55,309 bases of DNA from Rhizaria sp. SCN 62-66 (taxonomy: Eukaryota), in assembly GCA_001724265.1 (NCBI GenBank), contig MEDY01000186.1:1-55309 (forward strand). Reading direction: 5' to 3'. Shown here piece by piece: positions 1,005-34,875 of the stretch (positions are counted from its first letter, which is position 1; every line of letters starts with the position of its first letter). A model generated the notes under the pieces. It had not been told where the DNA came from. It saw only the letters and a program-made list of their open reading frames with translations, and made no database searches. The translations under genes and the position numbers were made by a program.

Positions 1005-4000
1005 TCAACCCTGACTGGTGACGTTGTTGTTATTCATGTGAAAAACAGTGTTCGCGAGCCGAAGCCGCTCCGCGACCTCCGCCTGCTCGGCATCAAGCCG
1101 CGCACGCTCGCGCTCCTCATCCTCCTGCTGCGCGCGCGTGACTTCTTGGTTGTGGACGCTAGCGTTGAGCTCCATGAGATAGCGGTCCAGCAGCTCGAGC
1201 GTGTGCGTAACGCGCGCGTGGACCACATTCTCGCCCATCGCACGGTCAAGCGGCAGCGGGACGGCGACGCTTGCGCTGCCCTCGCCCCACGCGCCCGCCG
1301 TGACGTCCACCAGCGCGGTACTCATGCCCGCGCCCGCGGTAGTCGTGCCAAACGTCTTGCGCGGGGAGATTCCGCCCGCGCCGCTGCCGCCCGCCTGGTA
1401 GATAGGGATCCCTCCGGCGGCGGCGTCATCGCCACCGTCAGCGCCGCCGTTGTAGCCCGCGGAGCCCGCGCCCGGCTGCGGGCTGAGCACGGTGACGGCA
1501 TTGACGTCGCGGTCGACCACGACCTTGAGCTGCGCGGGGAGCTTCCCCAGCAGTGCAAGCATACCTTCTTGCACCAGCGCGAGCTTCGTCGCCGCGGCCT
1601 CGACTGCTTCCTGCACCTTGAGCGTCTGTGCGGCCTTTGCGCGCACTTTGTCGCTCTCCTGGTCCACCGCGCGCCACTGCACGTCCTCGTGCGCGGCCCG
1701 CAGCTGGCGCAGCTCCTCCTTGTGCTGACGGTCAATGAGCGCCAACTCGCGGATGCGACGCTCCTTCTCGTCCATTTCGCCCTGCAACTCGGCACGGATG
1801 TCCTCCTTGAGACGGAACTTGTTCACGATCGCGTCAGGATCGTCCAACCCGGTCGCGGTAACGATCTGCTGGAACCGCGCCTTGAAGTACATCAACCGTT
1901 CGCGCACGGCCGCCAAGTGCTGCGACATGTGCGCCGCTTCCTGCTGCTTGGCCTGCATTTCGCCCTCAAGCGCGGCGATCTTGGCGCGCGTCTTAGCCTC
2001 GTCCTGCTCGCGGCGCTGCGCGGCGGCGCGCGCGCGCTGGGCGTCAACGCGCTGCGACACGGCGTGGATGGACGCGAACGAGTCGAGCTGCTGCCGCATG
2101 AACTGCTGGTACTGGCGCACCTCGGTCTGGAACGCGCTCAGCTCGCCCTCAGCACGGTCACGCTCCACAAGAGAGTGGAGACGGATCTCGTTCATGCGGC
2201 GCAGCGCGGCGTCGTTGTCGGCGCAGGCGAGGCGCAGCGCGTGCAGCCTGTGGTAGTGGTGCAGCTCCTCCTCTTTCAAATGCGCAATATTAAGCCGGTA
2301 GTTGCGCTGGTTCTGGTCCGTCTCGGCGACCTTGATCTGCACCGTGTTGAGCTTCATGTTAAGCACTTCCTCGCTCTTCTTGAACCCTTCGCCGTTGCCG
2401 CCAGCCGTCGCCGCCGCGCGCTCCGTCTCCAGCAGCGCCTGGCGCGCCTTGATCGCGGCAGCCAGTTCGCGGCCCTTCGCACTGAGCGAGTCATGCTCGC
2501 CACGCAGCGCAGCAACCCAGTCGTGCGCTTTGGTGAGGTCAGCGGGCGCGTCCATGCTGCCGGCGGCCGTGCTCTGCATCTCGGTGACAAGGCCAGCGAT
2601 CGAGCGCATGAACTGAGCGCGCACCTGACCAGCGCCCACGGTCGGCCGTGATGCCAGCGCAGTGCCCGTGGGCGCCGCCGTCGCGGGCCGGTGTCCCTGC
2701 TGCTGCTGGCCGGCGGGACCCAGAGAAAAGTTCTTGTTCGGGCCGGTGCCGTCGTGGCCGCCGGGCGCGGTGCCGGGGCGGCCAGTGAGCCCGCTCGACG
2801 ACCCGTTGCCGGACTGCGTTTGTCCGTACTTATCGCGCTTGACCGACTCGAAGTAGTCCTGCATCGGGCCGAAGCGGTCAGGCGCGACGTTGCCGGCCCA
2901 GTACCCCGCGCCCTCCTGCGCGACGATCTCCTCCACGGTGTTCTGCGCCGCCTCGGCGGGCTCGACCAGCGCGCGACAGTCGGCGGCGAACTCCTCGGCC
3001 TCACGCACCTTGAGCGTGGCCATGCCGTGGCCCCAGTGCTGCCGCAGCTCGGCAATGGCGGCACCCGTCTGCATCAGCTCCGCGCGCGCGAGGCCGTGCG
3101 GGAGGTGGCGCACCGCGGCGAGCTTCATCGCGTACTCCTCGCGCTCGGCCGCGAACCACAGTGCAGTCTCCTGGTCGATACGCGAGCACGGCGCAGCGGC
3201 GAGAGCGACGGTGTGGTGCTCACCGCAGGCCACTTGGCCGACGACGGACCCCGTGATCGCCTCGACGACGCGGGGCACTAGAGTCGACTCGTCCGCGCCG
3301 TGGCCGAGCTGGCCGTTCTCGCCGCAGCCCCACGTGTAGAGCGTGCCGAACGCGGTCGCCGCGATCGAGTGGTACCGCCCCGCGGCGACCTGCGCGATAG
3401 CCTTCCCGAGCAGGACGAGGCGGGGCACGCGCAAGGGCGCGGCGATGCCGTGGCCGAGCTGGCCATAGGTACCGGAGCCCCACGCGTACACGTCGCCCTT
3501 GGCCGTGAGAGCGACGATGTGCGCCTGTCCCGACGCGACCTGGATGATCGGCTCGCGCACAGTCACCCGCACAGGGCGGTACGCAAAGCATGGGGCGTCG
3601 GGGCCGGTCGCGGGGAGCAAGTGCTCGCCGAAGCCGAAGACGTACACGCTGCCGTTAGCGCCGACTGCCGCGGTGTGGATCGCACCGCAGGAGACCTGGA
3701 CAATGCGCAGCGCGAGCGGCTGTGGGAGACGCGCGCACAAAGCCGCCACGGTCCCGGCCTCGCCACCGGCAGCGGCGGCCGCGCGCGGGGACAGCGCAGT
3801 GCCGTTCGCCTCAGCATCGGCCGCAGCGGCAGCAGAGGAGCTGCTGTTGTCGGCGGCGGAGGCGAGTGAAGAGCCCTGCTGCTGCTGCTGCTGCTGCTGC
3901 ATGGCGGAAAGCCCCGTGAAGGAGCTGACCGCGGAGCTAGACTGTTGCGCGGTTGACAGAGGGTCGAGCCAGGCGTCAACCCCGGTGGCCATGCCGGAGA

Positions 4001-5000
4001 CGGCGGCCAAGTCTGCCTCAGGCGGCGACGCGTCGTCGGCAAAAAACGACACGGGCCGCGGGCGAACCTCGGCGTCGTGCTTCTGGCGCCCGTGGCCGAG
4101 CTGGCCGTTGTCGCCGCAGCCCCAGGTGTAGAGCGTGCCGGCCTCGGTCACGGCCGCGGAGTGGCGGTCGCCGCACGAGACGTCGACGAAGCGAGCTGAC
4201 GTGGTAATCTCACGCGGGGTGTCCACGCGCTGGCGGTCGCCGTGGCCGCACTGGCCAAACTTGGACGAACCCCACGTGTACATCCGGCCCTTGTCGGACA
4301 GCGCCAGCGAGTGACCCTGGCCGAGCGCAATTTTGACGATGAAGGTCCCCTTGAGCGCGTCGACGGGTGCTGGAACCTGCTGGTTCGTGGTGCACTTGGG
4401 CGTGTAGCCAAGCTGTGAGGACCGCGCGTCGCCCCACGTGTAAACCTGGCCGTCGTCAGTCAGCGCGGCCGTGTGGAGCGCACCGCAGGCAATCTGGCGC
4501 ACAGCGACGGGGAGCTCGACGCGCTGCGGCACGGTCGCGTACTTGGGCTGGCCGCGAGAGAACCGGCATCCGCCAAGCTGGCCGTGATAGCCGGCACCCC
4601 ATGACCACACGAACGTGCCGCGCTGCTGCAGCGGGAGACGATTGCGCGCGTCCTTAGCTTCCTTGATGGCGCCGCCAGAGCCGGAGTCCTTCGACGTCGA
4701 GACCGTCATGGTACCCGGGGAGCCGACGGAGCCGCCGCGGGTGATAATCTTATACATAGAGTCGAAGATCAGGTGGCGCTTGGCCATGTCCGGAGGCGGG
4801 CCCTGCTCAACGTTGCCCTGGGTGAGCATCATATTGGTCGCGGCGGTCTCCTCGGCGGTGGGGCCTGCAGACGGATCGCTGCTACTGCTGCTGCTGTAGC
4901 CAGAGCCAGACTGCTGTGAGCGGAGCGAGGACGACGCACCCGCGGAAGACGCGTTGCCCATGCGGGACGGACCCATAGTCCCAGTCCGGGATAAGCTCAT
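1005..5000 (-). CDS. RCC1-repeat beta-propeller protein with C-terminal coiled coil resembling outer dynein arm docking subunit DC1/CCDC151 (ODAD3)
   Basis: 1331-aa ORF with about 7 RCC1 repeats (e.g. IACGALHTAALTDDGQVYTWG, VASGQAHIVALTAKGDVYAWGSGTYGQLG), then a long coiled coil containing FQQIVTATGLDDPDAIVNKF. Ends TGA. RCC1 call is firm; the ODAD3 resemblance is tentative. Confidence 0.85.
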   Translation of the reverse strand: MSLSRTGTMGPSRMGNASSAGASSSLRSQQSGSGYSSSSSSDPSAGPTAEETAATNMMLTQGNVEQGPPPDMAKRHLIFDSMYKIITRGGSVGSPGTMTVSTSKDSGSGGAIKEAKDARNRLPLQQRGTFVWSWGAGYHGQLGGCRFSRGQPKYATVPQRVELPVAVRQIACGALHTAALTDDGQVYTWGDARSSQLGYTPKCTTNQQVPAPVDALKGTFIVKIALGQGHSLALSDKGRMYTWGSSKFGQCGHGDRQRVDTPREITTSARFVDVSCGDRHSAAVTEAGTLYTWGCGDNGQLGHGRQKHDAEVRPRPVSFFADDASPPEADLAAVSGMATGVDAWLDPLSTAQQSSSAVSSFTGLSAMQQQQQQQQGSSLASAADNSSSSAAAAADAEANGTALSPRAAAAAGGEAGTVAALCARLPQPLALRIVQVSCGAIHTAAVGANGSVYVFGFGEHLLPATGPDAPCFAYRPVRVTVREPIIQVASGQAHIVALTAKGDVYAWGSGTYGQLGHGIAAPLRVPRLVLLGKAIAQVAAGRYHSIAATAFGTLYTWGCGENGQLGHGADESTLVPRVVEAITGSVVGQVACGEHHTVALAAAPCSRIDQETALWFAAEREEYAMKLAAVRHLPHGLARAELMQTGAAIAELRQHWGHGMATLKVREAEEFAADCRALVEPAEAAQNTVEEIVAQEGAGYWAGNVAPDRFGPMQDYFESVKRDKYGQTQSGNGSSSGLTGRPGTAPGGHDGTGPNKNFSLGPAGQQQQGHRPATAAPTGTALASRPTVGAGQVRAQFMRSIAGLVTEMQSTAAGSMDAPADLTKAHDWVAALRGEHDSLSAKGRELAAAIKARQALLETERAAATAGGNGEGFKKSEEVLNMKLNTVQIKVAETDQNQRNYRLNIAHLKEEELHHYHRLHALRLACADNDAALRRMNEIRLHSLVERDRAEGELSAFQTEVRQYQQFMRQQLDSFASIHAVSQRVDAQRARAAAQRREQDEAKTRAKIAALEGEMQAKQQEAAHMSQHLAAVRERLMYFKARFQQIVTATGLDDPDAIVNKFRLKEDIRAELQGEMDEKERRIRELALIDRQHKEELRQLRAAHEDVQWRAVDQESDKVRAKAAQTLKVQEAVEAAATKLALVQEGMLALLGKLPAQLKVVVDRDVNAVTVLSPQPGAGSAGYNGGADGGDDAAAGGIPIYQAGGSGAGGISPRKTFGTTTAGAGMSTALVDVTAGAWGEGSASVAVPLPLDRAMGENVVHARVTHTLELLDRYLMELNASVHNQEVTRAQQEDEERERARLDAEQAEVAERLRLANTVFHMNNNNVTSQG

Positions 5001-5591
5001 TGCGCTTGTAAGCCGGAAGGGCGAGTGTGGAGGGCGATGTGTTCGAAGAGGTAACGAAAAGAGCGGTCTTCTCGGTGCAGCAAAGAGTGCCTAAACAAAC
5101 AGCACAAGAAGCGCGGTTGAAGATGGGCACGTTTAAGATAAGATACAATGATATGAAGTCAATCGTGCGGTAACTCGAGGCTAGTGAAAGGCACATGAGA
5201 TGTTCCGATTACGAACTTTAGGTCGCAACAGAACACCGTCTTCGGGAGAGCTTTACCCTCTTGAAATTCGCGGTAGAGGCCGCCAATACAAAATGTAAAT
5301 TGGCATAAGAATGAAAATCATAAACATTAATTGTTGCTTTTTTAGCAATTCACCAACGTATCCAGTTTACGCACACGATTCGAATTTGATTCCACACTCA
5401 CAAACCGTTATCCTTTTTGAATCGAACAACCACTGCAACGGCTCTCTCTCTCTCTGGTCAGGCCGGTTCTTAAAAAATCGACCCATGCTGCTGACGGTCG
5501 GTCATTCGGCCTGCAATGAAGATGTCAATTATATCTACCGAGCATCCGTCAATAGAACTGTGATAAACAATTCCAGATTTATTGATCAAAC

Positions 5592-8500
5592 ATGTTCCGT
5601 GCTTTATTACAAGGCTCTACCAGGGCTGCTGTGTCCCGTCCTATTCTCTCCCGCCGTGCGCCGCCCTCGACCGCGTCTTCACTCGCGTCCGTCCCCGCTG
5701 AGCACCTCCTCACGCGCGCCCAACCTCGTCTCTTCGGCCCTGCGCCTCCCACGGACTTTTCCGCGTCTTGCCCCGCTTTTGCGCATGTATCTCGCCCCAT
5801 CACGGCCTCGGTGTCCTCCCGTGACACCGTCCGCCGTTTCTTCTCGAAAAAGCCCACTGTGACAACTTCTCTCGGTCACAGCGCTCCCACTGCTGCAGTG
5901 AGCGCCGGCGCCCCCAACGGCTCCGCGGCTGCCTCGACTGACGCCACCTCTGCCGCTGCATTTCTGGCGAGTTTCTCACTCGACGAAGAAGAAGAGGCCC
6001 TGCTGGCGAGCTCGGCGCTGCCGTCGGCCGAGGAGCGCGCCGCCACGAAGCGTTTGCAGAAGCGGCTCGCGCAATACGATGAGAGTCTCGCTGCGGAGTA
6101 CGTCGAGGAGCTTGCCAGCCACGACGCCAGTCCAGCTGAGCTGCTCAAGCGTGCGCAGCGGCAAGCAGCAGCGACGTCGACCGGCGCTGCGACCGCAGTG
6201 CCAACAGTGACCGCCGCTGTGCTAAGCAAGGCTGGGGTCGGTGTTGGCATGGGCATTGGCGCTGGCAAGAGCGCGCTGGCAGATGTTGGCACCGTCACCG
6301 TGCTTGATATCCCTCCGCAGCATGCCGCGGCCCCGCAAAGCAAGACTGACGCGGCAGCGAAGACCGCGGCTGCCGACGGTAACCAACAGCATCAGCAGCA
6401 AAATGAAGCAAGTGCCAGCGCCGCGGCAGCCGGTGCGCCGCAGACTGCGGAGGGTTTGTTCGGCATGTCCTCTCTAGGAGACTACTCGGTCCACTTCCCG
6501 GATCCGCTGATCTATACAGGTACGCTTGATCACCCGTTGCAAAATCAGCAACCTCACAAAGATATGACTAAGTTGTGAGCCCCTATCACGGACAACAACA
6601 TATTGATGTTTTGCAATTCCAGTTATCAGCCCAAGCGCTCACTTTCTATGCTCTCTGTTCTCATTTGTTCTCAACTTGCTCTTGTTTTTGTGCTTCTGCG
6701 CCTGTAGGCACTGAGCGCGTGCGGTGGGTGCCCCCGTCCTCTGCCTTCAACCCTTTCGCTTTCCCGGTCCTCGACGTCTCCACACTGTGCATCGAGCCTG
6801 ATGAGATCGTCCAGCTCGCCGCTTCCAAGGAAGCTGAGGCCGCCGCAACGCCAGCCTCAGCAGTCACCGACAAGGATACCAAGAGCAAGAGCTCAGCAAC
6901 TGCGAAAGGTGCCAAGTCTGCCGCCGCCGGTGCAGCAGCTGCTGCTGCTGCAGAGCCGGCGTTGGAGTCCGCGGCGGCGCGGTCTCTTGCGGCAGCATAC
7001 GGCAACTTGTCAGAGATCACGCAGTCACTGATGACCAACGGGGGCGGGCTCGCGCCAGAGCAGCAGCATTAGCAGCAGCAGCAGCAGCAGCAGAAGCAGC
7101 AGCATATGAATAGCTACGGAACTGGTGCTGCTCACGGCCACCCCCACGCGCCCGGCATGCCCCCGGGCCCTGCGGGCGCTAGTGGGCCCTTCGTCAGCGG
7201 TCCCAACATGTCTGACAGTGCTAAAACTACTACAAGCGCGAACAAAACGAACGCTAACCCGCCGAATATGGCCAATGCTGGTGGTGCTGGTGCTGCTGCA
7301 AGGAAGGATGATGATAATGAGAGCGGGCAAGGTATGTTAGGCCACGAATCCGCTCTTCCTCAGGGAGCTGTGCAGTTTAGGCAGTCCCTCGCCAAGTTTC
7401 CGCGTCCCCTGGTTGTCCGCTTCCCGGTCCCGCGCGCTCTGCAACAGGACATCACGGCCGTCTTCATTGCGCCCATGCCACGCACTGCGCAGGAGGCCGT
7501 CGCGGCCGAGGAGCAGCGCGCACGCCGCGCACGCCTGGCCTCGGGTGCTCCACCCACGCGTACAGGTACTTCTGCTCCGGACCACACCGCGGATGCCGCC
7601 GCCGTGGTGGGCACCGAGCTCGCCGGAGTCGCGCGTTACCTCCAGGCAAGTCACGGGTTACCCCGCGCCGACGACGCGCCGGTGCGCGTGACCCCTCGCG
7701 TGTCTCTGCCTGCCTCGGCCAAGAGCAAGGCCCCGCCCGCAAGCGCCAAGGCCCGCGCACAGACCCAGGCACAGGCACGTGCGAACAAGGTCCACGGCCG
7801 CGCTGTCGCCAACGCCAACAAAGCCGGAGCCGGTGGCTCAGGTGCCGCCGGTACGGCTGAGGAGGCTGTGCGCCGCGAGGCCGCCAAGGCGCCGCCGGTG
7901 CGCGTGGCACAACGTGCCTCACACTCTGGCGGCCGGTTTGACGTGTATATGGCGGACGAGCACGGGACCACGCTGTTCTTCTCGTCCCGCGCCGGTGTCG
8001 CCGCCAAGGGCGAGCTGCGCGTGACCGCCGCGGCGATTGAGCGGCATCACATCCTCGGTCTGTCGCGTCCGCCGCGTCTGCTGCCGCTGCCGCCGCCGCT
8101 GGCGCAGGCCGAGGCGGCCGCCACGCGCGCGCGCGGTGGCAAACCCGGTGCGGACGCGGAGGAGATCTGCGGCGTGCTTGAGTTCGAGGTCGCGCGTGTC
8201 ACCACGACGTACCAGGCGGGTGATCCCTACGGTGAACCGTCGAGCAGCATCACGTTCCGTGCCCGCGAGGTCGATTTCTTACTCCGGTCGGTCATTTTCG
8301 GCGTGCATTTGCCCGCGCCTGTGCCGCCGGTGTATGCGCATGCCGTCGAGCGCAGTCTCACCGCCGTGGCCAAGAGCGACAACAGCGGTAGCAAGGCGGA
8401 TAAGACTGCGACTGAGAGCGAGGATGACCGGCGCCGCGCGCTGGCGGGACGGTTGTGTATGGCGCTGTACGGCCAGGGCGCCAACGTCGCGTCCACACGG

Positions 8501-8827
8501 TCGCCGCTGCGGCACCCCGTGGTCGCGGCCGAGGAGCTGGGCTCGGTTGAGCTGGCCGTGCTCTACGGCGACCCGCGCGAGTTGTTCCCTAAGGAAACCA
8601 CGCGCATCGCGACTGAAGAACAGTTGGAAATGGTGATGGCTTCGCTTAAGGGCGACGCGGCCAAGGATGTGGTGACGGACTCGGCCATGAACGCGCCGCC
8701 CGGGATGCCCACCGAGACCGAGGGCGCTGCTGCGAGCAACACGAGCGCGGATGCGTCGGCTGAAGACGCTGAGGAGGCGGAGGCGGCGGATGCTGCAGCG
8801 ACGCCGACTCAAAGTGCGACTCAGTGA
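5592..8827 (+). CDS. Hypothetical protein with mitochondrial-presequence-like N-terminus; intron 6520-6707; in-frame TAG 7070-7072 (~1015 aa if TAG is sense)
   Basis: Arg/Ser/Ala-rich, acid-poor N-terminus (MFRALLQGSTRAAVSRPILSRR). Phase-1 intron ACAG|GTACGC...CTGTAG|GC joins ORF 5592 to the frame of ORF 6575, which is in frame with ORF 7106-8827 across one TAG in a CAG run. Ends TGA. Confidence 0.7.
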
Positions 8828-9475
8828 ACGACGTGCAGCGGACAAGGAATATGTGGATTTATGTATTTATTAGGACTAATTTAAGTAAAGCCCATTTGTT
8901 ATGTTTCAATAGACAATATTTATAATTCAAATGTGTTTTATTTTCATAAAGAAATGATTTTTTGAATGTGTTTGATGGCTTGGGTCAATGCTTTTTTCGG
9001 AACTGCGGTCCAGGTGAACAGGTTGTTCACCAAATTGATCGATCGAGAAAACGGTTTGCGAACTCGCGAGCTGCTAGCGTCAGATGTCCGACGGTTATTG
9101 GCTTGTAGGCACTGTATGCATTTTCAATGACACGGTGCTTTGAAATACTAGTATTTCACCCCATCTTGCGCGTATGCCGCATTCACACGCGCCATCTTGG
9201 TTTGACCTACTGCCCAACAGTCAATTTAGAGGGAGCCATCTCCCCTAGACCCAAAGCTTAAGACCCATTCACCAGTTCGCACCAGCCGCCCTGGAGTGCG
9301 TTCTCACCACTTATTTCTACCAAACTTATGCACCATCTCACTGTTTCCCGCTTTTCTCGTCCCGTTTTTCTTCTGCCCCTTCTCCTTGCCTTATCCTCCT
9401 CTTGGTCCCCCGCCCACTTCCCCCCCGTTTCCCGTCACTGCCCGGCCTCCTCCGCGCCTCCCAGACACCTTCCCC

Positions 9476-13221: not shown

Positions 13222-16200
13222 ATGTCGCTCTACGGCAAATCGGGCGGCTCTGTCGTTGCGGCCAGTGCTGGCAGCGCAACTGGAGGCCTCTACGCCCGTA
13301 AGCAACCAGCAGCTCCCGCCTCTAACACAGCCTCTGCAACTGGCGCGACCAGCGCTGCACCGACCGGAGCAGCGTCATCAGCTGCTGGTGCCGCTGCGCC
13401 GGGATCGCTCTACGCCTCCGTGACGTCCTACGTGGCTGGCCCCGCGCGGCCCCCGGCGAACACGACGCCCGCGCAAGTGCCCGCATATGCTTCCTCTTCC
13501 TCTTCCTCTGTGTCTGCTGCGTCGTCGTCGTCGTTGTCAGTGGCAGCGTACGCTGCTGCGTCCGCGTCTGCTGCCTCTGCGCCGATGTCTGCCACGGGTG
13601 TAAGTACTCAGCCCGCGTCTGCTATTGGAGCAGGCTCGCTGTATCGCACATCGTCGACGGTCTCTCGCGCACCTACAGTGACTCCAATCGTAGTGACTTC
13701 AAACACAGGCGCAACAACAGCAACAGCAACAGCATCAGCAACAGCAGCGACGATGAGCACAGCGGCTACGAGCGCCGTGACGCAATCTCGGTCTGTAGGC
13801 AGTTTATATCAACGGCCATCCTCCTTTGTCACACCGAATCCAACCTCTTCCCTGATCACCCCAGCGAACACAACTAGCGCCGTCTCTAACGCGGCGTTGC
13901 CGCAGCAGCGGCCAGCGTCGCCGTCACTATTCCCGTTCGATGCGTCACCGACTGCAGCTCACTCGACAGCACACGCGACCCCACGTCCCGCCGCGACTGC
14001 GTCTGCAGCTGCAGCTGCGTCGACTACACCTGTTGCGACTGCATCACTGTCTGTGTACACTGCAACGTCTGGCAATAGCGGCGTCAACAGAAATAACAAT
14101 ATGTATAGCAACAAGAGCAACTACATCGGCAGTAGCGCTGCTGTATCCAGTTCCACTGCTGCAGCGTCGTCGGCTGCCCCAGCGACTGTGAGCACCAGCC
14201 AAACGCTGACTGCCAACACCCGCCTCGCTGTCACAGCGCTGTCGAACCTGTCCACTCACGCCGCCGCCCTTGCCCGCGCCAGCGCCAGCGCCGGCACCAG
14301 CTCTGCGGTGGCATCCGCTGCGACCGCGTTTGCCGCGAGCGACGCGGCGGTGTTCCGCGCGGCCGACGCTCTCAACGGCGCAGCGGCAAACGCTCTCAAG
14401 CCAGAGCTGGTTAAGCAACAGCAGCATGGCCAGCAGGGGCGTGGGCTAACACAGGAGACGACTGCACTGACGGCGGCGTTGGTCCGCGCTACAGAGCACA
14501 TTGTCCCCGCCCACGGTCCGTTGCGGTTGCACTCCGCAGCTCCCGGTCACTCAATCGAGCCCAGTCACGGTGCCTGCCAGCCTGTGCCACGGTCGCTGCA
14601 CGCGAACGCGCCGGGCCCGCGGTCAGCAGCGACTGCATTCTCAGCACCTGGGCTGACGGGCCCTCAAGAGGGCGCTCTTGCCGGCGTCGTTGCGACGCTG
14701 CTCGCTCTTGGTCAAGAACAACAACAGCAACAGCAACAGTCTGACACCGCCGCTGATGACTGTGACTGGGATAACACGCGTGCAGTTGTGACACTGCGTC
14801 CCGGCCTTGCCGTTCAGCCTCCCACGAGTACTGGCACGCGTGCCACGGGTAACAGGTACACGCAGGCCGTGAGCGCCAACAACGCCGCCGCGGCCGAGGC
14901 TGCAGCCGTGACCGCGAGCGCGTGTCCACCGGGAAGCTTTTACGCGCCCACAGTCGCCCATCCGTTCCCCACCGATGGGTTTGCTCTGCTAACTGTCTCT
15001 AGCAACAACAACAGTAACGGGGTTGACGGCGCTGACTCCATTGCTGGTCCTCAGTCCGCATCCTCACTTATCGACACATCTGCGAGCGCGAGTGCCAATG
15101 CCAGTGCGAATGAGAGCGTGAGTGCAGAGGCGCTGCTGGGCGCAGCGGGCGCGGTGCCGCTTATCGGCAGTGCACGGCGGGCCGCTGTGGCGCCGCTGTC
15201 TGCCGAGGCGCGCCGAGTGCTCGGGCTCAGTGACTCCACGACGGCGCTCACGGTCACTTCTGGGCTGCCCACAGTCGCTTCTGGTTTGGCCACGAAGGGA
15301 TATCCTGCGCCGCCAGTGGTTTTGCAGAGCGCGCCGGCGATTCAGTACAACGCGTCTGCGACGACGACGACGACGACGACTTACGTTGCGCAGAATGCCA
15401 CTGCGCTGACCTACGCCGGCTTTGGTACGGTGAACAACACCGCTGCAAACGCATCTAACACAGCCCAGACCGCAACCACTGCGTATGCGAGTGCAACTGC
15501 GAATGCGAGTACTGCGTCCCGCGCGCCGGTTAAGAGTGAGGCTACTGCAACTGTATCTGCACCCCCGCCTCGTCACTATGGGACTTCAGCCGATGTGCAG
15601 TACACTGGCGATTCGTTCGACGACGGACCGCCGCCGCTTGAGTCACTGCCTGCTGAGGAGTTCAAGATCAAACGCGAGTACTCCACACAGATCGCCGCCT
15701 CGAGCACAGCACCCGCTGCGGAATCGGTGGCTGCTGCTCTTGGTGTTCCTGTCGGTGCAAGCGGGGCTTCGTTATACCGCAACACACAGCCCAATAGCAA
15801 CGTCTACAGCAACAATAACGGCAGCGGGAGCAGCGCCAGTAAGGACTCCAGCGCTTATGTCAAGGGTTCCTCGCCAAGCTCTATGAAGGCCGACGCGATT
15901 GCTGCTGTTCCGAGTGTCGCAGCCGCACAGCCTGCGTCGTACGTTGTTGGCGCGGTTATGGCCGCCGCATCTGAAAGCAAACCGACGAGATCAGCCGCTG
16001 CTGGCGGACAAGAGAGCAAATTACACTTTGATCAACAACAGCAACAACAGCGTCAGTCAAAGCTTGCGGCTGACACTGCACAGGAGCACAAAGACAGTCA
16101 CTACACCAGCCCCGTTTCTGTTCACAACAATCACAACGCTACCTCGAGCTCAAGTTCTAGCGCCAGCTCGAGTTCTGCAGTGGACACTGGTGCAAGCAGT

Positions 16201-19200
16201 ACATCTGCTGCTGCTGCAGTTAGCGCAGACAACAATGGCGATTTTGGCGCGGATCATTGGGGCGATGAGCCGCCTATGTATGACGAGTGGATTCCTGACG
16301 ACTTCGACGACAACAATTTCCACGACGATACCGGCAACGGTGCAGGTGACTCGAACTATGATCAACAGGTGCAAGAGCACGAACAAAGTCAGTGGCAGCA
16401 TAATTCGAAGACGCAGCCGAAAGTCAAGTCGCACATGACTGCGGCAACGAGCATCTACAGTCAGCGGCCGGCTCAACAGCAAGCGCAGTATCAAGCGCAA
16501 CAGCAGAACGGTTACGGCGCAATCACCCCGCCGGCAACTGCTGCATCGGGAACCTCTGGGAGCATTTACGGTGCAGCGCAGCGCAACCCAGTTGCAGCGA
16601 ATCAGTCCGGGAGCGCTTACGCGACTCCCCCAGTCGGTCCCGCTGCTCCCGCTGCGAGTGCAGGCGCCAACTCTGCCACAGCAGCGGTGTCCAGCATCTA
16701 CAACAAGAACCGCACTCCTGCCTCGGCTTCTGCTGCGGCAGCCGCTGCCGCTACTGCTATGCCATCTGGAGCCCCCTTTGGCGCGACTGCTGGCGCAAGT
16801 GCCGCGAGCGCATTCGGGTCTGTTGCTATTGCAGCACAGTCCGCGTCTTCCAGCACGTACAGCGGCATCTACTCGAACAATCACAGCAACAACAACGACG
16901 CATCAGCTGCTGCGGCTGCGGCTGCGGCTGGTGTCGATGTCGACAATGCCGCCGCCGCCACTGCGAGCGCTGTCAGCGAGCTCGACGAGACCACCACCAC
17001 TGCCTTCGCGACGGATGTCGATACAACGGGCGCGCTCGAATCCTTGCTCCCACCGCTGCTGCTGCGCCGCTTGCAACACAACAATCTCGACACGTTTAGT
17101 AACAGCTCGTTCCGCCCACTGCAGCTCACCGCCGTCGCCGCCACGCTGGCCGGGCTCGACGCCGTGGTGCTGATCCCGACCGGCGGCGGTAAATCCCTGT
17201 GTTACCAGTTGCCCGCTGTGTTCGAGAACCTCCCCGAGCACTGCCGGCCGTGCCCCGCGCCCGCTGCGCTGCGCCACACCGGCGCCAGCCACAGTGGCGC
17301 TGGCACCGGGGCGAATATCGGCGTGCTCGACCGCCGTGGCGCCGCCGCCGCGCTCGCGTCCTGCGGCTACGGCAACAACAACGGCGGCGGATATGGCGCT
17401 GCGGCTGCGGCTGCGGCGGGGGGTGCGTGCAACGGCGAAGGTCTGGTGTACGCGCACCCGCCCGAGTCTCCCGGCGCGGCGGCGCGACTCCCCGCCGTCG
17501 CCGTGCGCCCCGGCGTGACAGTGGTTTTCTCACCCCTCGTCTCGCTGATCCAGGACCAAGTTGAGTCGCTGCGAGAAGCCGGTGTGCACGCGTCAGCGCT
17601 CGCGCGGAGCAACCTGGGTCCCTTTTCCGGCGACGACGATGGCGGCGATGATGGCGGCGGCGGCCGAAATGCGTTCTCGCAGCACCCGCAGGGCGGCAAG
17701 GGCGGGAAGCGGCAGAAGCGCCCGTCGCAGTCGACGTCGCAGTCCGCGTCCGCGTCGGAAGGGTTCGGAGACGACGCTCGCACGGTCTGGGCGCGCGCGT
17801 TCACTGCGGACCCCGCCGAGCGCCTGCGGCTGTTGTACTTGACGCCTGAGAAGCTGAAGAAGAGCGACGCCACGCGCGAGCGCCTGCAGGCGTTGCACCG
17901 TTCGGGCCGTCTCGCGCGCTTCGTCGTCGACGAAGTCCACTGTCTGAGTCAGTGGGGACACGACTTCCGGCCTGACTACCTCGTCCTGTCGACGCTTAAG
18001 ACCGACTTCCCCGGCGTGCCCATCATCGCGCTCACCGCGACGGCGACCCCCGCCGTCGTTGCCAATGTCGCACAAGTGCTCAAGCTGCGAAACCCGGTCT
18101 ACGCGCTTCCGGGCCCCGCCGGCAACGCGGTGTTTGCGAACAACGCCGCGCTCGTGCTGCAGACACGTTTGCGCCCGCTGCTCGGTCCGTCTGGCCCTGG
18201 TGCCGCGTCGGCGTCGGCTCAGGGCGCGACGCCGGTGCTACGGCGCTCGTTCAACCGCGAGAATCTCATCTACGAAGTGCGCGATAAGACGAAGACTCAC
18301 AAGGAAGACATTGTGGCGTTTATCAAGACGCATTACCCGCGCGCGTGCGGCATCGTGTACTGTCTCGCGCGCAAGGAGACTGAGGAGATGGCCGCATTCC
18401 TGACTAGACACGGCGTGACAGCGAACTTTTACCACGCCGAGGCCAAGAACAAGGCCGCTGCGCAGCGCCAGTGGGCCGAAGACCGCGTGCAAGTCATGGT
18501 TGCCACGATCGCGTTCGGCATGGGGATTGACAAGCGCGACGTGCGCTTCGTTATCCACGACACGCTGTCCAAGTCGCTCGAGGGCTACTACCAAGAAGCC
18601 GGCCGCGCTGGCCGTGACGGCGCGCCATCGCACTGCGTTCTCTACTACTCACCAGGCGACAAGGCACGTCTGGACCGCATGCTCGCGCCGGACTACTCGA
18701 AGCAGAAGCATCTCTCACGGCCGCAGCAGAACGAGCTCACTGTGCTCAACGCGCGCAAGCTCGACGCCATGGTCGGCTACTGCATCAACACCTACGATTG
18801 CCGCCGCGCGCTCACTCTGCGGTACTTTTCCGAAGACTTCGACCGCGCGCGCTGCCGCCGCGGCTGCGACAACTGCGCCGCGCTCGCGCAGGGCTGTCTC
18901 GCCGACGCCACAGCGGCCGCACAGGCGCTGCTGCGGCTCGCGCTGAGCCTCGCTTTCCCGCCCCGCAGCGTCGCCGCGACGCCGCAGGCACAGGCCGCGG
19001 CCGCCGCGATGCACCAGCGCACGCAGGAGCTGCTCGCCGCTGCGCGCGGCGCGGCCCCGCTGCCGACCGCGACCGCGGGCGTGCGGCTGCTGGCCTCGTT
19101 GCGCGGCCGCGAGTCGCGCTTCAAGCCGTCGGACCTGCTGCGCGCGTTTGCAGGCAAGGGCGCCGCCGACCTTGCGGCGTACGGTGACGACAACGGCAAC

Positions 19201-22200
19201 GGCGACGACGACGATGACGACTTCGGTGGCGGCGGCGGGGCGCGTGCCCGCAGCAAGTCCCGCAAGGGCGCCACGGGGCGCATCGGCTCTCCCGCCGGCC
19301 GCAGCTCCTCTGCGGCCGTGATGGTGTTCCCTTCATATGTTGCGCAGATGCCAGAGTTCGGCGCAGCAGCCTTTACGCTGCCGCACGCGACTCCAGCGTC
19401 ACAAGCCGCCCCAGCGGTGACGGGCTCGGCCGCGGTCCTCGCTGCCGCTGCGATGCGTGCCAAGGCCAAGTTTTCTACTGCAACCGCCAACACTGCGTCC
19501 GCGAGCTCTTCATCTGCTACGGGCTCGAGCTCGAGCGCGAGTGTGAGCGCACCTGCTGAGGCACTCGCGTCATCGGCGGCGTCGGCAACGCTTTCTGACC
19601 ACCAGCGCCTTTTGGCGTTGGCCGTTGACCGCGGTTTACTCACCGTCCAGCGGCATGAGTGGCGCGGCGGCAGCTTCGGCGGCGTGACACTCTCGGTCGC
19701 ACTGGGCGCAAATCTACCGCTCATCTGGGCTCTGCTGACCGCGCGTGTCACGTCGCCTGCGCAGGACGACCCCCTCGTCGCGACGCCCTCGGCCGCGGCA
19801 GCGCTGACGCGCATGAACGTAAGCGCGGGCCCGCACGCCGCTGCGCCGGGGCGGCGCGCGGTGGTGTCGTTGCTGGGCCCACGCGCACTGGCGATGCAGC
19901 ACACGGCGCTGTGCCGGCGGCTCGGCTGGCAGGAGCGCGACGTCTACGTCTCTGCAGACGCGCAGCAACAACAACAGCAGCAATCTGCACAGATGCAACA
20001 AAAGCAGCAGAGAGTGAGCTGGGCGTTTGACCCCGCGTCGGCGCTGGCCCGCGGGGCCGACGGCGTTGCTGCCGAGAGCGAGTGGGCGAATCTGCTGCGC
20101 GCCTCTGTCTCCGCGCCCACTGCCACCGCAGTCGCGAGCTCTGCCAGCGCGACTGCGGACGATGGCAACCCGGTGCGCGTGCTGCTGGGGCTGCGCATGG
20201 CCGCGGCGGCGACGGCACGCGCCTCGCGCGCCAAAGAGAAAGCCGCCGAGCGCGACGCCAAGACGGCTGGGCGCGAGGCCAAGGCCGCGGAGAAGGCGCG
20301 CAAGGCGCAAGAGAAGAAGGCTGAGGCCGCCGCCGCGCGCGCTGCCAAGTCCGCGCTCACGCCCAAGAGGTCTCGTGGGAGCGCTGCCGCCGCCGCTGAT
20401 GCTGGCGCCACTGCGACCCAGGATGATGTCGTGCTGGATACGGATGAGTACGACGGCAGCGAGCTCGAGATCTCGCCGCTGCGGCCCGTGGATCACCACG
20501 CGCCTAACGCCAAGCCGGGCACAACGGCGGCGCGCAGGCTCGCGACGATTGCCGCCGGCGCCGCTGCTGCTGCTGCTGCTGCGGCGGTGGCGGCCGCTGA
20601 TGCTGGTACTGGCGCGGTTGCGGGCAAGGCGTCGCTGCTGTCGCCGCTCGCGGCCGCGACGGCCGGCAGCGCGGCCGCAGCGCCGGGCGCGGGTCGCGCG
20701 TGGATGCGCCCTTCCGCGCGTCCCGTGCCAGCTGACAACGACGACGACAACGACGACGACGACGATGACGACGGTGTCATCGGCAAGGGCGCGCACGCCA
20801 AGGCCAAGCGCGGCCAGAAGAAGGGCCAGCCCGCGCCACCGGTCACAGTGCCGATGCCGGCCGCAGCTGGACTCGGACTCGGACTCAGCGCGGGAGGCGC
20901 TCTGGGCGGTGCGCGCGGCCGCGGGCTGGCGCAGTCAGAGGCCGCGGCGGTTGCGATGGCTGCAGAGGCCCGGCGCCGCGCCGAGCTCGCCGCTGCCCAG
21001 CACGGTCACGGCCATGATGGCAGCGAGAGTGACGAGTTGGGGCTGATGACGCAAGATCTGTCCACGCGGTTGCAGAACCGCGAGGCCGCGAACGCTGCTG
21101 CTCTTGCTGCGGAGAGAGCGCACCAGCAGCAACAGCAACAAGCAATGCACGACGGCGGTGCGGGCGAGGATGACCACGACCTCAACGACGACTACGACGA
21201 CTATCATGATGCAACGGCCGGGTCCGGTGCGCCGGCGACTGCTGGCGGACTGGCGGCGCTGGACCGTTTTGCAGCCTCGTCCGCTCACGCATCCCCAGCG
21301 CGTTCAGGCATGCTGGCGTCCTCCGCTGCTTCGCCAGTGAGATCGAGTGCGACCGTCGGTGCGCGCAGGACGGGCGCGGGGCGCAGTGCGCAGCAGTCCG
21401 CCACTTCGTCGCTTGCTGCTGCTGGTGCTGCTGCGGGCGCAGCTGCCGGGGCGGCCACGGCCCAGTCAGGCTGGCTTACACCCAATGCCAAGGCAGCGTC
21501 TGCTGCGGCAGCCGCGACAGCTCTGTCGCGCGCATCGTCGTCGTTGACCGTGAACGAGTCTGAAGCGATCCTGATCGACGACGACGACGACGACGACGAT
21601 GACGGTGGTCAATGTGGCACCGGCAGCGGCTACGCGACGCCCGTGATGTCCCGCGCACGCAGTCGCGGCAAGCGTGGTGCGTCTCCGGGCGCGGCGTCGA
21701 TCCCCGGCGACGGCGGCATCGTCAACGGCGTCGTTTCGATCGGCCCCGTGGGCTCGGGCCGCATGCCGCTGGTCGGCTCTGTGTGGACCGGCGCAGTGCC
21801 CGCTGCGAAGCCGCGCATGAGCATGGCTGCCGCCGCAGCCACGCCCGCTACGGGGCGCACGGCGGCGAGTCCTGCGTCAACCAAGAGCACTGCGCCCGCG
21901 CTCGTCCGCGCTGCGCAGGCGAACAAGGCGGCTGCCGAGGCGGCGGCCGCAGCCGCAGCCACAAGCAACGGCGTGAGTGCTGCTGGTGCTGCTGGTGATA
22001 GCGGCGACATGTTCAAGGACGCGTACGACATTGATGACGACGACGATAACGAGGGCGTCAGGCTCACCATCAGAAGCGCAAACACAAGCTTCAGCTCTGG
22101 TGCGCGGAGCTCGACTCAGGGACAGGGACAGGGACAACCGGGACAGCCGACGCGGTGGTCGCAGCAGTCGGACGCAATGTTGTCGGACGATTCCGCCGGC

Positions 22201-23856
22201 ATCTCACTCACGGCCTCACCTTCGTCCAAGCCCACCGCCACCGGCACTCAGCGTGTGGGTGCGCGTGCCAATGCATTGGCCGCCAGCCAGGGTCTGGAGC
22301 TGCGGCATACTCTTGTGCCACCACGCACTGATTTCTCGCAGATGGACCGCGAAGAGGCGTTGTACGAGCAAGAACAATTGCGACAGCAGCAAAAGCAGCA
22401 TGCACAACAGCAGCAGATGCGCGCGCAAGACGACGGCGTTGATCTCGAGATGAGCGACGACGACAACAACGGTCTTGACGAAGAGGACGAGGACGAGCAG
22501 GATGACGACGATTACGATGAGAATGAGACTGAGGAGGAAGTGCAGCTGCGTACGCTGCGGCGCCGTCTTACGGCCACGCTTTTCCGCGGATACACTGCTG
22601 CGCGGCAGACTGCAGTCGAGGACGCGATTGTGCTTGTGCGCAGCGCTAACAACATTGTGCGCCGCCAGTTGACACTTGCTGTTATTACTGAGCTGCGCCA
22701 CTCACTGCCGATGGATCCGCTCTCAGTCTCTCTGCGCGCGCGTATGAATCGCGTACACATGCGCAACACTGGCCACCTCGTGCTGTTTTCTATCATCTCG
22801 GCGCTCGCGGCCGCCGGTGTGCGCGTGCGCCGCCGCTGGGATCCCGCAGTGCTGGCCGAGGTCGGGCTTGGCTCTTCCCCGGTGCACCCTGCCGTGGCTG
22901 CTGCGCGCGACGAAGCCGACAAACTCCGCGCTGAGATCGCTGCGTTGCGCAACAGTGCTGGGATCGGTGCCGATGCCGGTGCTGGTGGCGCCGCGGCCGT
23001 TGAGGCGTGCGCGTGTTATGACACGAGTCTCAACCTTGCGCGCCTGCTCACAGTCACCCGCACCCGCGCGCGCCACCTGCGCGCCGCTGCAGCCGGCAAC
23101 GTCATCGCCACCGCCGCAGCCGCTGCGCTCGAGTCCGAAGAGCAAACCCTCCGCGCCCGTGTCGCGCGCGAGCTCGCCGAAGAAGAGTTTGTTGCGCTCG
23201 ATCCCCGTTGGTTGCTGCGGCCCGGCGACGACAAGAGCGCGCGCGAGCCCGCAGCGAAGACTGCGATGGAGGACTGGCTCTCCATTCCCGAGTCGCTTGC
23301 GGCAGATGTTGACGACGCTGCGTACGCGCTGCCCGCAGCCGCACCCTCTGGTGGCTCTGGCGCTACTGGCGCTGGAACGGCGAGGGGGCAGCAGACGTGG
23401 GCTGCGGGTGCTGTGAATGCCAACACTGGCTACGGAGACCCGTATGGCGGCGCATCGCTCGCGGTGTTTCCCCCCGCACAGTTTCCGTATGCGCAGCAGA
23501 CGCAATCCCAGGCCATCACGCAACAACCGACGCAATCTGCAGCTGCGTTCGGAGGCGAGCACATCTCGATGGCGCAGCTGACAGACACGCAGGCGTTTGC
23601 GCGCATGCACTCGACGAGTGACAGCGCCGCTGCAGTGGGCCATGAGAACGGTGGTCCCGTGGTGAAGCGCAGCAGGCTGTCTGGAGCCAATGACGGTGGA
23701 CCTCTCGCCGCTGCAGCATCCGCCGCTGCGACAACAGGCACAGGCCAAACTTCTGATGTACAAAACGACGAACACGCGAACATCAATGCGTACTCTATCG
23801 AACATGAACACGGTGCCAGTCTTGAATCGCAGTACGAAGGAGACGAAGCATGGTGA
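13222..23856 (+). CDS. RecQ-family DNA helicase (BLM/Sgs1-like), ~3544 aa, uninterrupted ORF
   Basis: FRPLQ (motif 0), [85 protein letters not shown] and RQC zinc motif CRR...C...CDNC within ~17090-18880. First in-frame ATG at 13222. Ends TGA. Confidence 0.95.
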
Positions 23857-28032: not shown

Positions 28033-28077
28033 CCCCCCAAAGGGACGGGGCTCTCAACCCCCCGAAGGGACGGGGCT
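28033..28077. repeat. Short direct repeat CCCCCC(A/G)AAGGGACGGGGCT x2 in an intergenic region
   Basis: Two near-identical ~20-bp copies about 25 bp apart. Confidence 0.75.
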
Positions 28078-28445
28078 GTCGAAGAATGCGCAACTACAAT
28101 GTATGGGGAGATTAGATGTAGACGTAGAATTTAAGGAGATATATGATGTTTATATGTAAGGATACCAAGGAATATGCTCAATAATGCTGTATATCGAAGA
28201 CTGTATTGAGGGGAAATAAAAATCAAGTTTGTACTTTCCAAGACGTGGAGATCGAAGTGGGCTAACTTTGCAACTGAATACGGACGCTTGGGATTGTCCA
28301 GAGTTCATTATTTGTATATGCCATGAGACTAATAGAGATAAAACGTTATCTTACCATTTATCACAACGAGAACTCTTCATAATCTCTCATACGCCATCAC
28401 GTGTTCCTTCCTTCGCGCCTACATCTCAGACCCGCTTCTGCTTGG

Positions 28446-28889
28446 ATGTCTGTTCTAAAGCGCTACACGCAGCTCCCAACCCACCTCGTGCACATCGGCC
28501 GGCTTCCGGTCTCTCTGCGCGTGTTCAACCCGGCAAAGCGGTCCTGGGACCTGAAGCTGCACGACGGTAAGGTGCTTCCGATGAAGGCCGACAAGTACGT
28601 CGAGCCCAACGGCATGTCGATGCGGCCGCCCAAAAGCGAGAAGATGCGCCACACCGTGAGCACGTGGTAGGGCAACGAAGCGCGCGTGTACTTCCTCTAC
28701 GAGGGCTTCCCCATGCCCGAGGGGCTGGTGCTGGTGCACGAGCACACGGACCACTACTCGGTGCAGACGTCGGAGCCGTGCACGCTGCCCGAGCTCAACG
28801 CCAAGATCACTGCGCTCCTCCAGAGGGCCTCGTCGCAGACGCCCGAGGAGTTTCTCCGCCCGCTCACCGAATCAGATCAGGACAACTAA
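28446..28889 (+). CDS. Tse2-like ADP-ribosyltransferase toxin-family protein (147 aa) with in-frame TAG 28668-28670
   Basis: ORFs 28401-28670 and 28686-28889 share a frame. Joined, they show PNGMSMRP...EGxPxPEGLVLVHEHTDHYSVQ..PCTLPELN, as recalled for eukaryotic Tse2-type ADP-ribosyltransferases. Ends TAA. It would be a pseudogene under the standard code. Confidence 0.75.
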
Positions 28890-29665: not shown

Positions 29666-30560
29666 TTACTCCAGGCCAAATGCCTTGCAGTGCTGTTCCA
29701 ACTTAGAGCCTCCAAGCGCTTTGGTGTTAATGTCTGCGGTCATCTCAGCCGTGCCAATGTCCTTGACATCGATGCCGTAGTGGTGGACTTGGTTGCGCAC
29801 AGCGCATTTCTTACAGATGTCGATGTGCTTGGTCCACCCGTGGTGCTCGGGGTTCAGGATCGTGTCGATGGCGCTCTTGTTGTCGAGGCAGAGTGTGATC
29901 GGCGCCGTCCTGCCCGTGATCTTGGCGTGAATCGGTTGCGCCCAGAGTGCGTCCTTGGTTGTCTCAGCTGCCGCGACAAACTCAGCTTCAGTGCTGGACT
30001 CTGAGACGAGAGTCTGCTTGCGCGTGAACCAGCTGAATGGGCTGCCACAGTATAGCACCACGGCGCCTGAGGTCGACCGCTTGTCAACGACGTCGCCCGC
30101 CTAATCCGAGTCTGAGAGTGCCGTAATGGTCTCGTTCCCGTTTGAGCGGCCGGCCAGATGAAGCTTGTAATGCTTGGTGCCCTTGAGGTAGCGCAGAACG
30201 CGCTTCTGTGACAGTCGAATGGTCTTGATCGTGCCAGTTTATGAGGTGCTGGAGATATCTGACTACGAACGCAATGTCACTGCGACCGCAGCGGACCAAA
30301 TAGCCAAGCTGAGCAGTGAGACGCGTGTAGTTGTCTTTGCTGTTGTCGTTGTAGCTGATGTCGTACTCGTAGTCGCGGTGGGCGTCGGGGCTGGTCGCCG
30401 TTGCATCGCCGCCAGGTGAGCTGCGCTGCTGCGCCGCGACCGCCGCGATGACGGGCAGCTTCCTCTTCGGCTGCATTGGCGTTGGCGCGGTGTTGGCGTT
30501 GCGCATGCCCCACTCAGCCAGCAGGTCATCGACGACATGCCTTGATCGCGTCCACCTCAC
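29666..30560 (-). mobile_element. Degenerate Ty1/copia LTR retrotransposon pol fragment (RT C-terminus plus RNase H)
   Basis: GMRNANTAPTPM, RSDIAFVV, KRVLRYLKGT, SDSD*AGD..DKRSTSG, SWFTRKQTLVSESSTEAEFVAA, DNKSAI, TKHIDI, ADINTKAL. Frameshift near 30205 and TAG at the conserved Trp (30101-30103). No gag, integrase or LTR recognised. Confidence 0.93.
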
Positions 30561-30841
30561 GACGTTGCCATTTGAGGCGAGACCGACTGGTGTTGCGATA
30601 CGGCCAGTGCCACTGGAACTGCCGCTGTAGCTGTGGGCATTGCCAAGTCGTGAGATCAGAACTTAGCTAGTCAATTTAGATATCGCCAAACAATGCGCAT
30701 TCGTACTTATAACTCGGTGTTGCAAGGTATCGATTAAAATCAATGTCTATAGTGTCTATTGAATAGAAAATAAACTCTAAATAACCATTCAAGCTTCAAT
30801 AATCAAATAATATCTCGTGCTGCAGGCACCATCACATTATC

Positions 30842-33800: not shown

Positions 33801-34834
33801 CGCGCAAACGCCGCCCAGCACCGACGCCCGCGGCCTCTCCCGGCAGCCGAGCCCGCCGCGACAGCGGCCTGACCGCGGCCGCGGCCGCCGCCGCCGCCAC
33901 GGCGACCGGCAGTGAGTGGAGGATGACGCCACATTAGGCCGGTGTCGCGCTCAGCGGCCGACGCTGTGTGCTTGCTATAGCTATAGCTACTGCTGCTGCT
34001 GCTGCGGGAAGGTGAGAGCGAGACTGATGGCGCGGCGAGCGCGCGTGCCAGCGCAGTACGTGACGGCAGCAGCGAGCCGCCCGCGAGCCGCGTGGACACG
34101 GCCGTGGCGGCCGCGTTGCCCGCACAGGAAGCCCCCGCGGCCGGGGACGCGCCGGGAAGCGGCGGCAGCGCAGCGGCGGCCTGGGCCCACGTGGCGGCAC
34201 CGGCGCCCAGGGGCGGCGGCGACGGCGGCGCCGAGGGGGGCAGGAACATGAGCGCAGACGGAGGTCGCGCAACAGCACCTGCAGTGTGCGCGTGATGACT
34301 GTGACTATGACTGTGAGCGGTGGCGGGGCAGGAGGCGTCGCAGACCGCGGCACCGCTGCTGTTGCGGCGCGCGAGCTGCCGCATGCGCCCGCTCCCATCG
34401 CGGTACGAACCGCCATTGACGGCAAGGGCGTCAGAGTCCGAGTCCGAGTCGCCCTCCGCCGGCGCCAGCAGCAGCACGTCCTGCCCGTGGCTGCCGCGGT
34501 CGCCGCCGCGAGTGCGGTGTCGCGAGGACGCGGGCACGAGCTGCGGACTAGCCGCGGCCGACGTCCCTGCGCTGAAGCCAGAGCCGAGGCCGTATGCGTA
34601 GCTGCTGAATAGCGAGACGAGGGCCGAGTCGTCGAACAAGGCCGCCGCGGCCACGTCGTCGTCGTAGTGCGCGCTGCCGCTGCCCCGAGGACGGCGGTGC
34701 AAATTCGCGCCTGCGACCGCGCCCGCCGCGACTGCGCTGTTGCTGCCAGCACCACTGTTGTGGTGAAAGTGGGCCGTGTGCGGCGCGTAGTCGTCGTAGT
34801 CGTTGTAGTAATACCCAGCCGCAGCGGCGACGGA

Positions 34835-34875
<41 letters not shown>

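Follow-up and report, generated by a model that had tools for sequence, protein, structure and literature searches.

An in-frame TAG inside a conserved protist gene as a hint of an altered or leaky genetic code

The TAG at positions 7070-7072 (+) of the window analysed here, the whole 55,309-nucleotide stretch of Rhizaria sp. SCN 62-66 DNA (contig MEDY01000186.1), is codon 431 of a conserved gene modelled at 1015 codons, and it gives a hint of a genetic code that is altered or leaky. Read with TAA and TGA as the only stops, the frame stays open over 6572-8827, this triplet being its sole TAG, and homologues join both sides of it; the TAG is therefore more than a chance occurrence in an open frame. 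From the sequence we infer that UAG 431 is probably read through and decoded as an amino acid, translation itself forming part of that inference.

The TAG lies in a polyQ linker tract (7058-7108, +) whose letters match the window exactly as an earlier note on this DNA had given them: a GAG, two CAG, a CAT and the TAG, followed by seven CAG, an AAG, two CAG, a CAT and an ATG. The tract thus contains, besides the TAG, one AAG and two CAT, and it ends in His-Met; in the relative P0146 the corresponding tract is an uninterrupted Q9-HM. The immediate context is CAT TAG CAG, with C as the +4 base. The TAG is in frame with the ATG at 7106, 11 codons away, and, as the same note had observed, there is no AT-rich spacer, with a GC content of 0.66 in the 100 nt before and 0.67 in the 100 nt after the TAG vs 0.40-0.44 in flanking intergenic and intron sequence. 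Codon-likeness is positive on either side of the TAG (0.61 and 0.47 bits per codon). The 573-aa open reading frame downstream (7106-8827, +), which standard-code gene callers report, is in frame with the TAG as claimed but is not the whole gene, since it makes up only the 3' part of exon 2.

In our model, exon 1 (5592-6519, +) ends with a conserved LFG...P.IYTG motif and is followed by a 188-nt GT-AG intron (6520-6707, +) modelled from sequence and homology, and exon 2 (6708-8827, +) carries a conserved W...NPF.F..LD motif and a helix before the TAG, a conserved domain after it and a TGA end. The motifs of the two exons are contiguous in distant homologues, which supports the modelled intron. 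The N-terminus is basic and acid-poor (13 R+K and 3 D+E in 88 aa) and resembles a mitochondrial targeting peptide; judged by this N-terminus, the protein is likely mitochondrial.

Searched against 1.84 billion representatives, the 750-residue read-through frame found 14 proteins. Two of them were the window's own pieces, four were fragments of 64-143 aa that were left out, and the full model was set against the other eight. In six of these eight homologues a single chain matches on both sides of codon 431, and the remaining two (P0149 and P0151) match only downstream of it. The closest homologue, P0146 (57% identical), aligns continuously over residues 314-973, beginning at the same exon boundary and crossing the Q9-His-Met tract into the downstream domain. 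In the AlphaFold model of the homologue P0148 (pTM 0.71), the motif upstream of the position equivalent to the TAG is ordered (pLDDT 84-87 over residues 71-90), which suggests that both sides of the TAG belong to one fold. Searches of Pfam, the ESM Atlas, PDB sequences and folds gave no family for the gene (best VIA Z 4.4, not meaningful), and its product belongs to an unnamed protein family with 14 search matches and a confident predicted core.

Four of the 16 metagenome and RNA runs were compared over positions 5500-8900, one of them (X3) carrying the window haplotype and three (X4, X5 and X6) a second haplotype. Fourteen single-base differences between the two haplotypes are listed over this interval, 12 of them coding, and 10 of the 12 are synonymous (4/4 upstream of the TAG and 6/8 downstream). 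Against a neutral share of 0.26-0.30 this is a synonymous excess on each side (P about 0.005-0.01 per side, 1e-4 overall), and both sides of the TAG are under purifying selection. The claim of the earlier note that coding sequence continues through the TAG is thus borne out, both by the six single-chain homologues and by the synonymous excess on either side.

Called proteins with the ...EQQH end that the TAG would produce occur on 7 contigs (JGI, ENA and Logan), some of which may represent the window's source or identical data; an assembly slip is not apparent at the TAG. The Gln read-through protein sequence had no exact match in the searched protein collection. Most contigs, including those of X3 and X4, break at the polyQ repeat, and the only second-haplotype contig to bridge it is X5 record 19 (6980-7237, depth about 5), which comes from a different study from the window. 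This contig differs from the window by two letters, at 7000 and 7171, both outside the tract, and by three gap letters; its alignment rows inside the repeat were skipped, and retention of the TAG is read from the mismatch count. On that count the TAG seems to be retained in the second haplotype, with one extra triplet in the tract, and if so the selection seen downstream postdates the TAG. None of the RNA contigs spans 7070. The polyA RNA run X6 has no coverage of 6982-7095, and it may be DNA carry-over because it includes an unspliced piece across the intron end. Repeat-length variation in the gene is in-frame only, comprising one extra GCT at 6937, in a poly-Ala tract upstream of the TAG, in X3 and X4, and probably the polyQ tract in X5.

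The 12 exon-modelled genes of the window, pooled to 14,594 codons, contain three internal TAG, in three different genes, and no internal TAA or TGA. TAG is as rare in them as ATA, the rarest sense codon (three each); the codons strongly avoided in these genes are NTA, AGA and CGA (ATA 3, AGA 12, TTA 17 and CGA 19 of 14,594). The 14 gene ends in the window comprise 8 TAA, 6 TGA and no TAG, a deficit with P=0.045 against the intergenic triplet share of 0.20, and P about 0.11 for 0/10 when the four TAG-bearing units are excluded. TAG also makes up 64% of the one-step nonsense supply, so that the identity of all three internal stops as TAG is not significant alone (P=0.26), and a single step separates each TAG from the residue expected at its site, as random mutation would give. 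No tRNA genes or Rfam families were found in the window with ARAGORN and Rfam, and no eRF1 was found among the genes identified in it.

The second in-frame TAG (28668-28670, +) is codon 75 of a 147-codon PF18648 (Tse2-like) gene (28446-28889) whose end agrees with that of its homologues. Across 13 homologues the TAG column holds Arg in five, Lys in four and Ser, His, Asp and Ala in one each, with neither Gln nor Leu. The gene may be a decaying pseudogene, because it shows mild decay upstream of the TAG (19/25 consensus columns kept, vs 18/21 downstream) and because three differences over 74 residues separate two variants of it; its product cut at the TAG is found on 10 contigs, in those two variants. 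Its homologues come from fungi, a dinoflagellate record and unnamed metagenome proteins, a patchy spread that suggests lateral transfer. The gene sits between a copia remnant and an LTR-like stretch (28066-28262, +) of about 170 nt, in which a purine tract, a TG start and TATA-like and AATAAA signals are visible by eye, as is a continuation with TGG and primer-site-like sequence. There is no second copy of this stretch in the window, and a 22-nt piece of it was unmatched in two collections.

The third in-frame TAG (35045-35047, -) is codon 424 of an 1824-codon gene (36316-30842, -) that shows no other lesion. Between it and the next ATG lie 220 coding-like codons, and the cut product is found on 7 contigs. 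No homologues of this gene were found, in an uninformative search that used low-complexity words and covered near lengths only. A further TAG (30101-30103, -) lies in the RNase H part of a copia-like RT/RNase H remnant (29666-30700, -), a 5'-truncated element with a low-complexity insertion and a frameshift; being in a dead element, this TAG is weak evidence. Its site is Trp in three of four other retroelements and differs in the fourth. A metagenome scan with the RNase H part gave 5 loci, of which only L001 is from the same organism; it is the window's own locus again, with 100% identity over 2660 nt that extends to the TAG. Further scans, of viral-contig and genome-contig collections, yielded no locus.

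The earlier note had also read the tract as a clue to the residue, reasoning that a CAG>TAG change would be silent if UAG meant Gln, and this part of its argument does not hold. The 13 polyQ tracts of the window contain 44 CAA and one TAG, along with missense neighbours in similarly small numbers (AAG 2, CAT 2, CTG 3, CGG 1), and TAG behaves in them like a missense interruption. The step from "silent" to "Gln" is unsupported because TAG is rare, is missense-like in polyQ, and faces Lys/Arg or Trp at the other alignable sites. None of the TAGs occupies a column of high conservation, nor is there one residue that would suit every site. What the tract shows is a most likely origin of the TAG from CAG, and not which residue it is decoded as. 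Gln is still the single most likely residue at TAG 7070, at best an even call, and partly because a near-cognate tRNA-Gln under the standard code would also insert Gln.

On balance, we think it somewhat more probable than not that across the genome UAG serves as a rare sense codon or a leaky one. The TAG would then be an internal codon of one conserved 1015-aa gene, translated through, and would have arisen when a CAG in a tolerant polyQ linker underwent a C>T change. In this protist UAG would no longer be a dependable terminator, genes ending in UAA or UGA, and it would be rare inside genes as a poor sense codon. It might be decoded by a tRNA with a CUA anticodon, as Gln in the manner of Iotanema or as Leu in the manner of the sainouroid exLh, or alternatively by near-cognate tRNAs when eRF1 fails to stop. 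We favour the genome-wide reading because it accounts, at no extra cost, for two or three more TAG-only interruptions and for the absence of TAG ends. Furthermore, the TAGs of the Tse2-like and 1824-codon genes lie outside Gln-rich context, so an effect local to polyQ does not explain them. The scarcity of UAG ends is partly clade background, because Guttulinopsis, whose code is described as probably standard, also rarely ends genes in UAG: all its transcripts but one are reported to end in UAA, and one Rosculus gene is reported to end in UAG (PMC5304391).

How the probability of the genome-wide reading divides is a matter of judgement and was not computed: a formal assignment to Gln is a minority prospect, Leu and a mix of near-cognate residues are each a little less probable again, and any other residue would be quite surprising. 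Precedent and the mutational origin of the TAG speak for Gln, and the possible kinship with exLh for Leu. The near-cognate mix, doubtful as it is, would amount to an intermediate state in which UAG has been dropped as a terminator and has no efficient cognate tRNA, so that near-cognate tRNAs (Gln, Lys, Tyr) decode it. Rare UAGs would then persist at tolerant sites alone, regardless of the residue that preceded them. If true, this state would be a natural nuclear example of stop-codon capture midway, and possibly the ancestral state of the related exLh UAG=Leu code.

The alternative that survives best, although we consider it unlikely, retains the standard code and takes TAG 7070 as a fixed CAG>TAG nonsense allele that survives because near-cognate tRNA-Gln reads it through at a few percent within the polyQ tract, a level sufficient for function, the other TAGs being ordinary lesions in decaying or dispensable genes. 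There is precedent in yeast, where premature stops in Gln-rich sequence are reported to have yielded full-length protein at 2-8%, with Gln inserted, and snf5-Q225X to have grown like wild type (PMC13192750), and TAG 7070, with its +4 C and the seven CAG that follow, is placed to match. A retained standard code would also account for the rarity of TAG, for the mixed residues elsewhere and for the possible decay of the Tse2-like gene. However, the site is His-stop-Gln and not a QXQ motif, and the gene has 4.5% Gln (CAA+CAG) vs the 7-20% reported for the yeast genes (PMC13192750). The same explanation must assume that another two or three TAG lesions arose independently in the 12 genes, one of them in the 1824-codon gene that shows no other lesion, and it has to treat the absence of TAG from all 14 gene ends as a coincidence.

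It is improbable that the gene is instead split or the TAG bypassed, with the 573 aa made separately from the ATG at 7106, from their own transcript or by re-initiation, or with the TAG or the following CAG used as a 3' splice site. The in-frame ATG lies 11 codons downstream, two functional halves would fit purifying selection on both sides equally well, two of the eight homologues (P0149 and P0151) matched the downstream part only, and both TAG and CAG are valid splice acceptors. Yet the unsplit relative P0146 has the same Met ending its polyQ tract, which is hence no new start; no promoter-like AT-rich spacer precedes it; and the C-terminal product would lack a targeting-like N-terminus. Re-initiation would have to follow a 430-codon open reading frame, after which it is inefficient in eukaryotes. 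As for splicing, the nearest in-frame GT donor (6863) would define a 210-nt GC-rich intron and delete a helix conserved in homologues, and the nearer options are GC donors in poor context, one of which would give a 21-nt intron, vs 174-188 nt for the measured introns of the window; an intron removing TAG 7070 is thus unlikely to judge by these sites.

Equally improbable is that the TAG truly ends a gene that died recently, that it is a heterozygous nonsense allele or that it is an error of assembly in a repeat. In favour of these readings, repeats are error-prone, most contigs break at the tract, the single bridging contig of the second haplotype has a depth of only about 5 and minor alleles are hidden in contigs. 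Against them, TAG-ending products come from 7 contigs and three sources, the TAG seems to be present in the second haplotype as well, the downstream synonymous excess stands at 6/8 with P about 0.005-0.01, and in each run most of the listed SNPs stand at full depth, giving no hint of two alleles.

The window is nuclear DNA of a eukaryote, an uncultured protist. Its genes include Pfam matches to RCC1 repeats, Dpy-30, RRM, a RecQ-type helicase, WD40, GNAT and an ABC-2 transporter; three GT-AG introns measured in it are 174-188 nt long, the one measured for GC having a content of 0.44; and its ends carry fragments that we take to be RPS11-like and RPL8-like. Three very long genes (13222-23856, +; 37031-43612, +; 30842-36316, -) are apparently without introns, and the long genes are inflated by runs of Ala, Ser, Gln, Asn and Asp, the RecQ-type helicase reaching about 3544 aa and the WD40 protein 2193 aa. 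At 1005-5000 (-) an RCC1-repeat protein is fused to a long coiled-coil-like C-terminal part, and the product may, by likeness, be flagellar.

DNA of the window is present in bioreactor, wastewater, activated-sludge and fuel-cell metagenomes, 4 of the 16 listed rows, one of them possibly its source, sharing at least half of its words. For its NAA30-like GNAT protein, Guttulinopsis vulgaris is the best named match among the matches listed, and in a quick single-gene tree with long branches, built from 57 of 120 listed matches, the window protein and two unnamed relatives fall in a clade with Guttulinopsis (SH-aLRT 97). A place in or near the Sainouroidea is, on this protein comparison, a lead and not a result. 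Compared by eye, the RPS11 and RPL8 fragments show no special closeness to Guttulinopsis. Rosculus and Guttulinopsis have been reported in wastewater (PMC8827150). The homologue P0149, labelled Lygus hesperus, was considered as a possible exLh protein and dropped as lineage evidence, because the Lygus hesperus transcriptome containing exLh is reported also to have a trypanosomatid (PMC5304391) and because P0149 and the window protein fell into different groups.

Few lineages are reported to have a nuclear code with only UAG turned to sense, namely exLh, Iotanema, some ciliates and Scotinosphaera (PMC5304391, PMC11687900), and for Rhizaria our search of the literature outside subscription papers turned up exLh alone. 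The window organism, which recurs in wastewater and whose DNA is public from several studies, would be a second case and would make it testable where in the clade the code changed. The organism would also allow tests of the accompanying tRNA and eRF1 changes, which the exLh paper, working without a genome, left open. At so low a UAG frequency, standard code-inference tools would overlook such cases, and gene callers would break up roughly one gene in four of the kind found in this window. If only the standard-code explanation holds, the gene would be a natural fixed nonsense allele kept alive by polyQ read-through.

Compared with known systems, the site resembles read-through in Q-rich yeast sequence in that a stop with +4 C stands in polyQ and function appears to be kept despite it. 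Natural suppression of UAG in yeast by Gln, Tyr and Lys tRNAs has been reported (PMC4150775). The yeast cases differ in being laboratory alleles under a standard code, vs a natural allele apparently shared by two haplotypes, and TAG 7070 lacks a 5' Gln codon, while the other TAGs of the window stand outside Gln-rich context.

In Iotanema spirale, Hartmannula sinica and Trochilia petrani, UAG is reported to encode Gln, with UAA and UGA as stops (PMC5304391, PMC11687900), and a tRNA-Gln with a CUA anticodon together with an altered eRF1 is predicted for the Iotanema-type code (PMC5304391). As in these organisms, the departure would be confined to UAG, in-frame UAG occurs inside conserved genes (the codon 431 gene and two more genes in the window), and an origin by CAG>TAG fits the site at 7070. 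In contrast, these lineages are unrelated to the window organism, and UAG accounts for a reported 8% or so of Gln codons in I. spirale vs at most 0.5% in the window (3 TAG vs 584 CAA+CAG), where an Iotanema-like share would predict about 47 TAG. In addition, none of the TAGs was seen to occupy a conserved Gln column in the window, where alignable sites are few and 7070 lies in a polyQ linker.

The nearest comparison is with exLh (Sainouroidea), whose nuclear code is reported to read UAG as Leu and to retain UAA and UGA as stops, with 384 UAG in 71 genes, placed at conserved Leu, and ends of UAA in 56 and UGA in 15 (PMC5304391). UAG is abundant there, vs 3 in 12 long genes here and none at a Leu column, and exLh was found in an insect, whereas the window organism is GC-rich and occurs in wastewater and bioreactors. 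The two nevertheless agree in that UAG is the only stop triplet found inside genes and that genes end in UAA or UGA (8 and 6 in the window), and the NAA30 tree suggests that they probably belong to the same broad clade.
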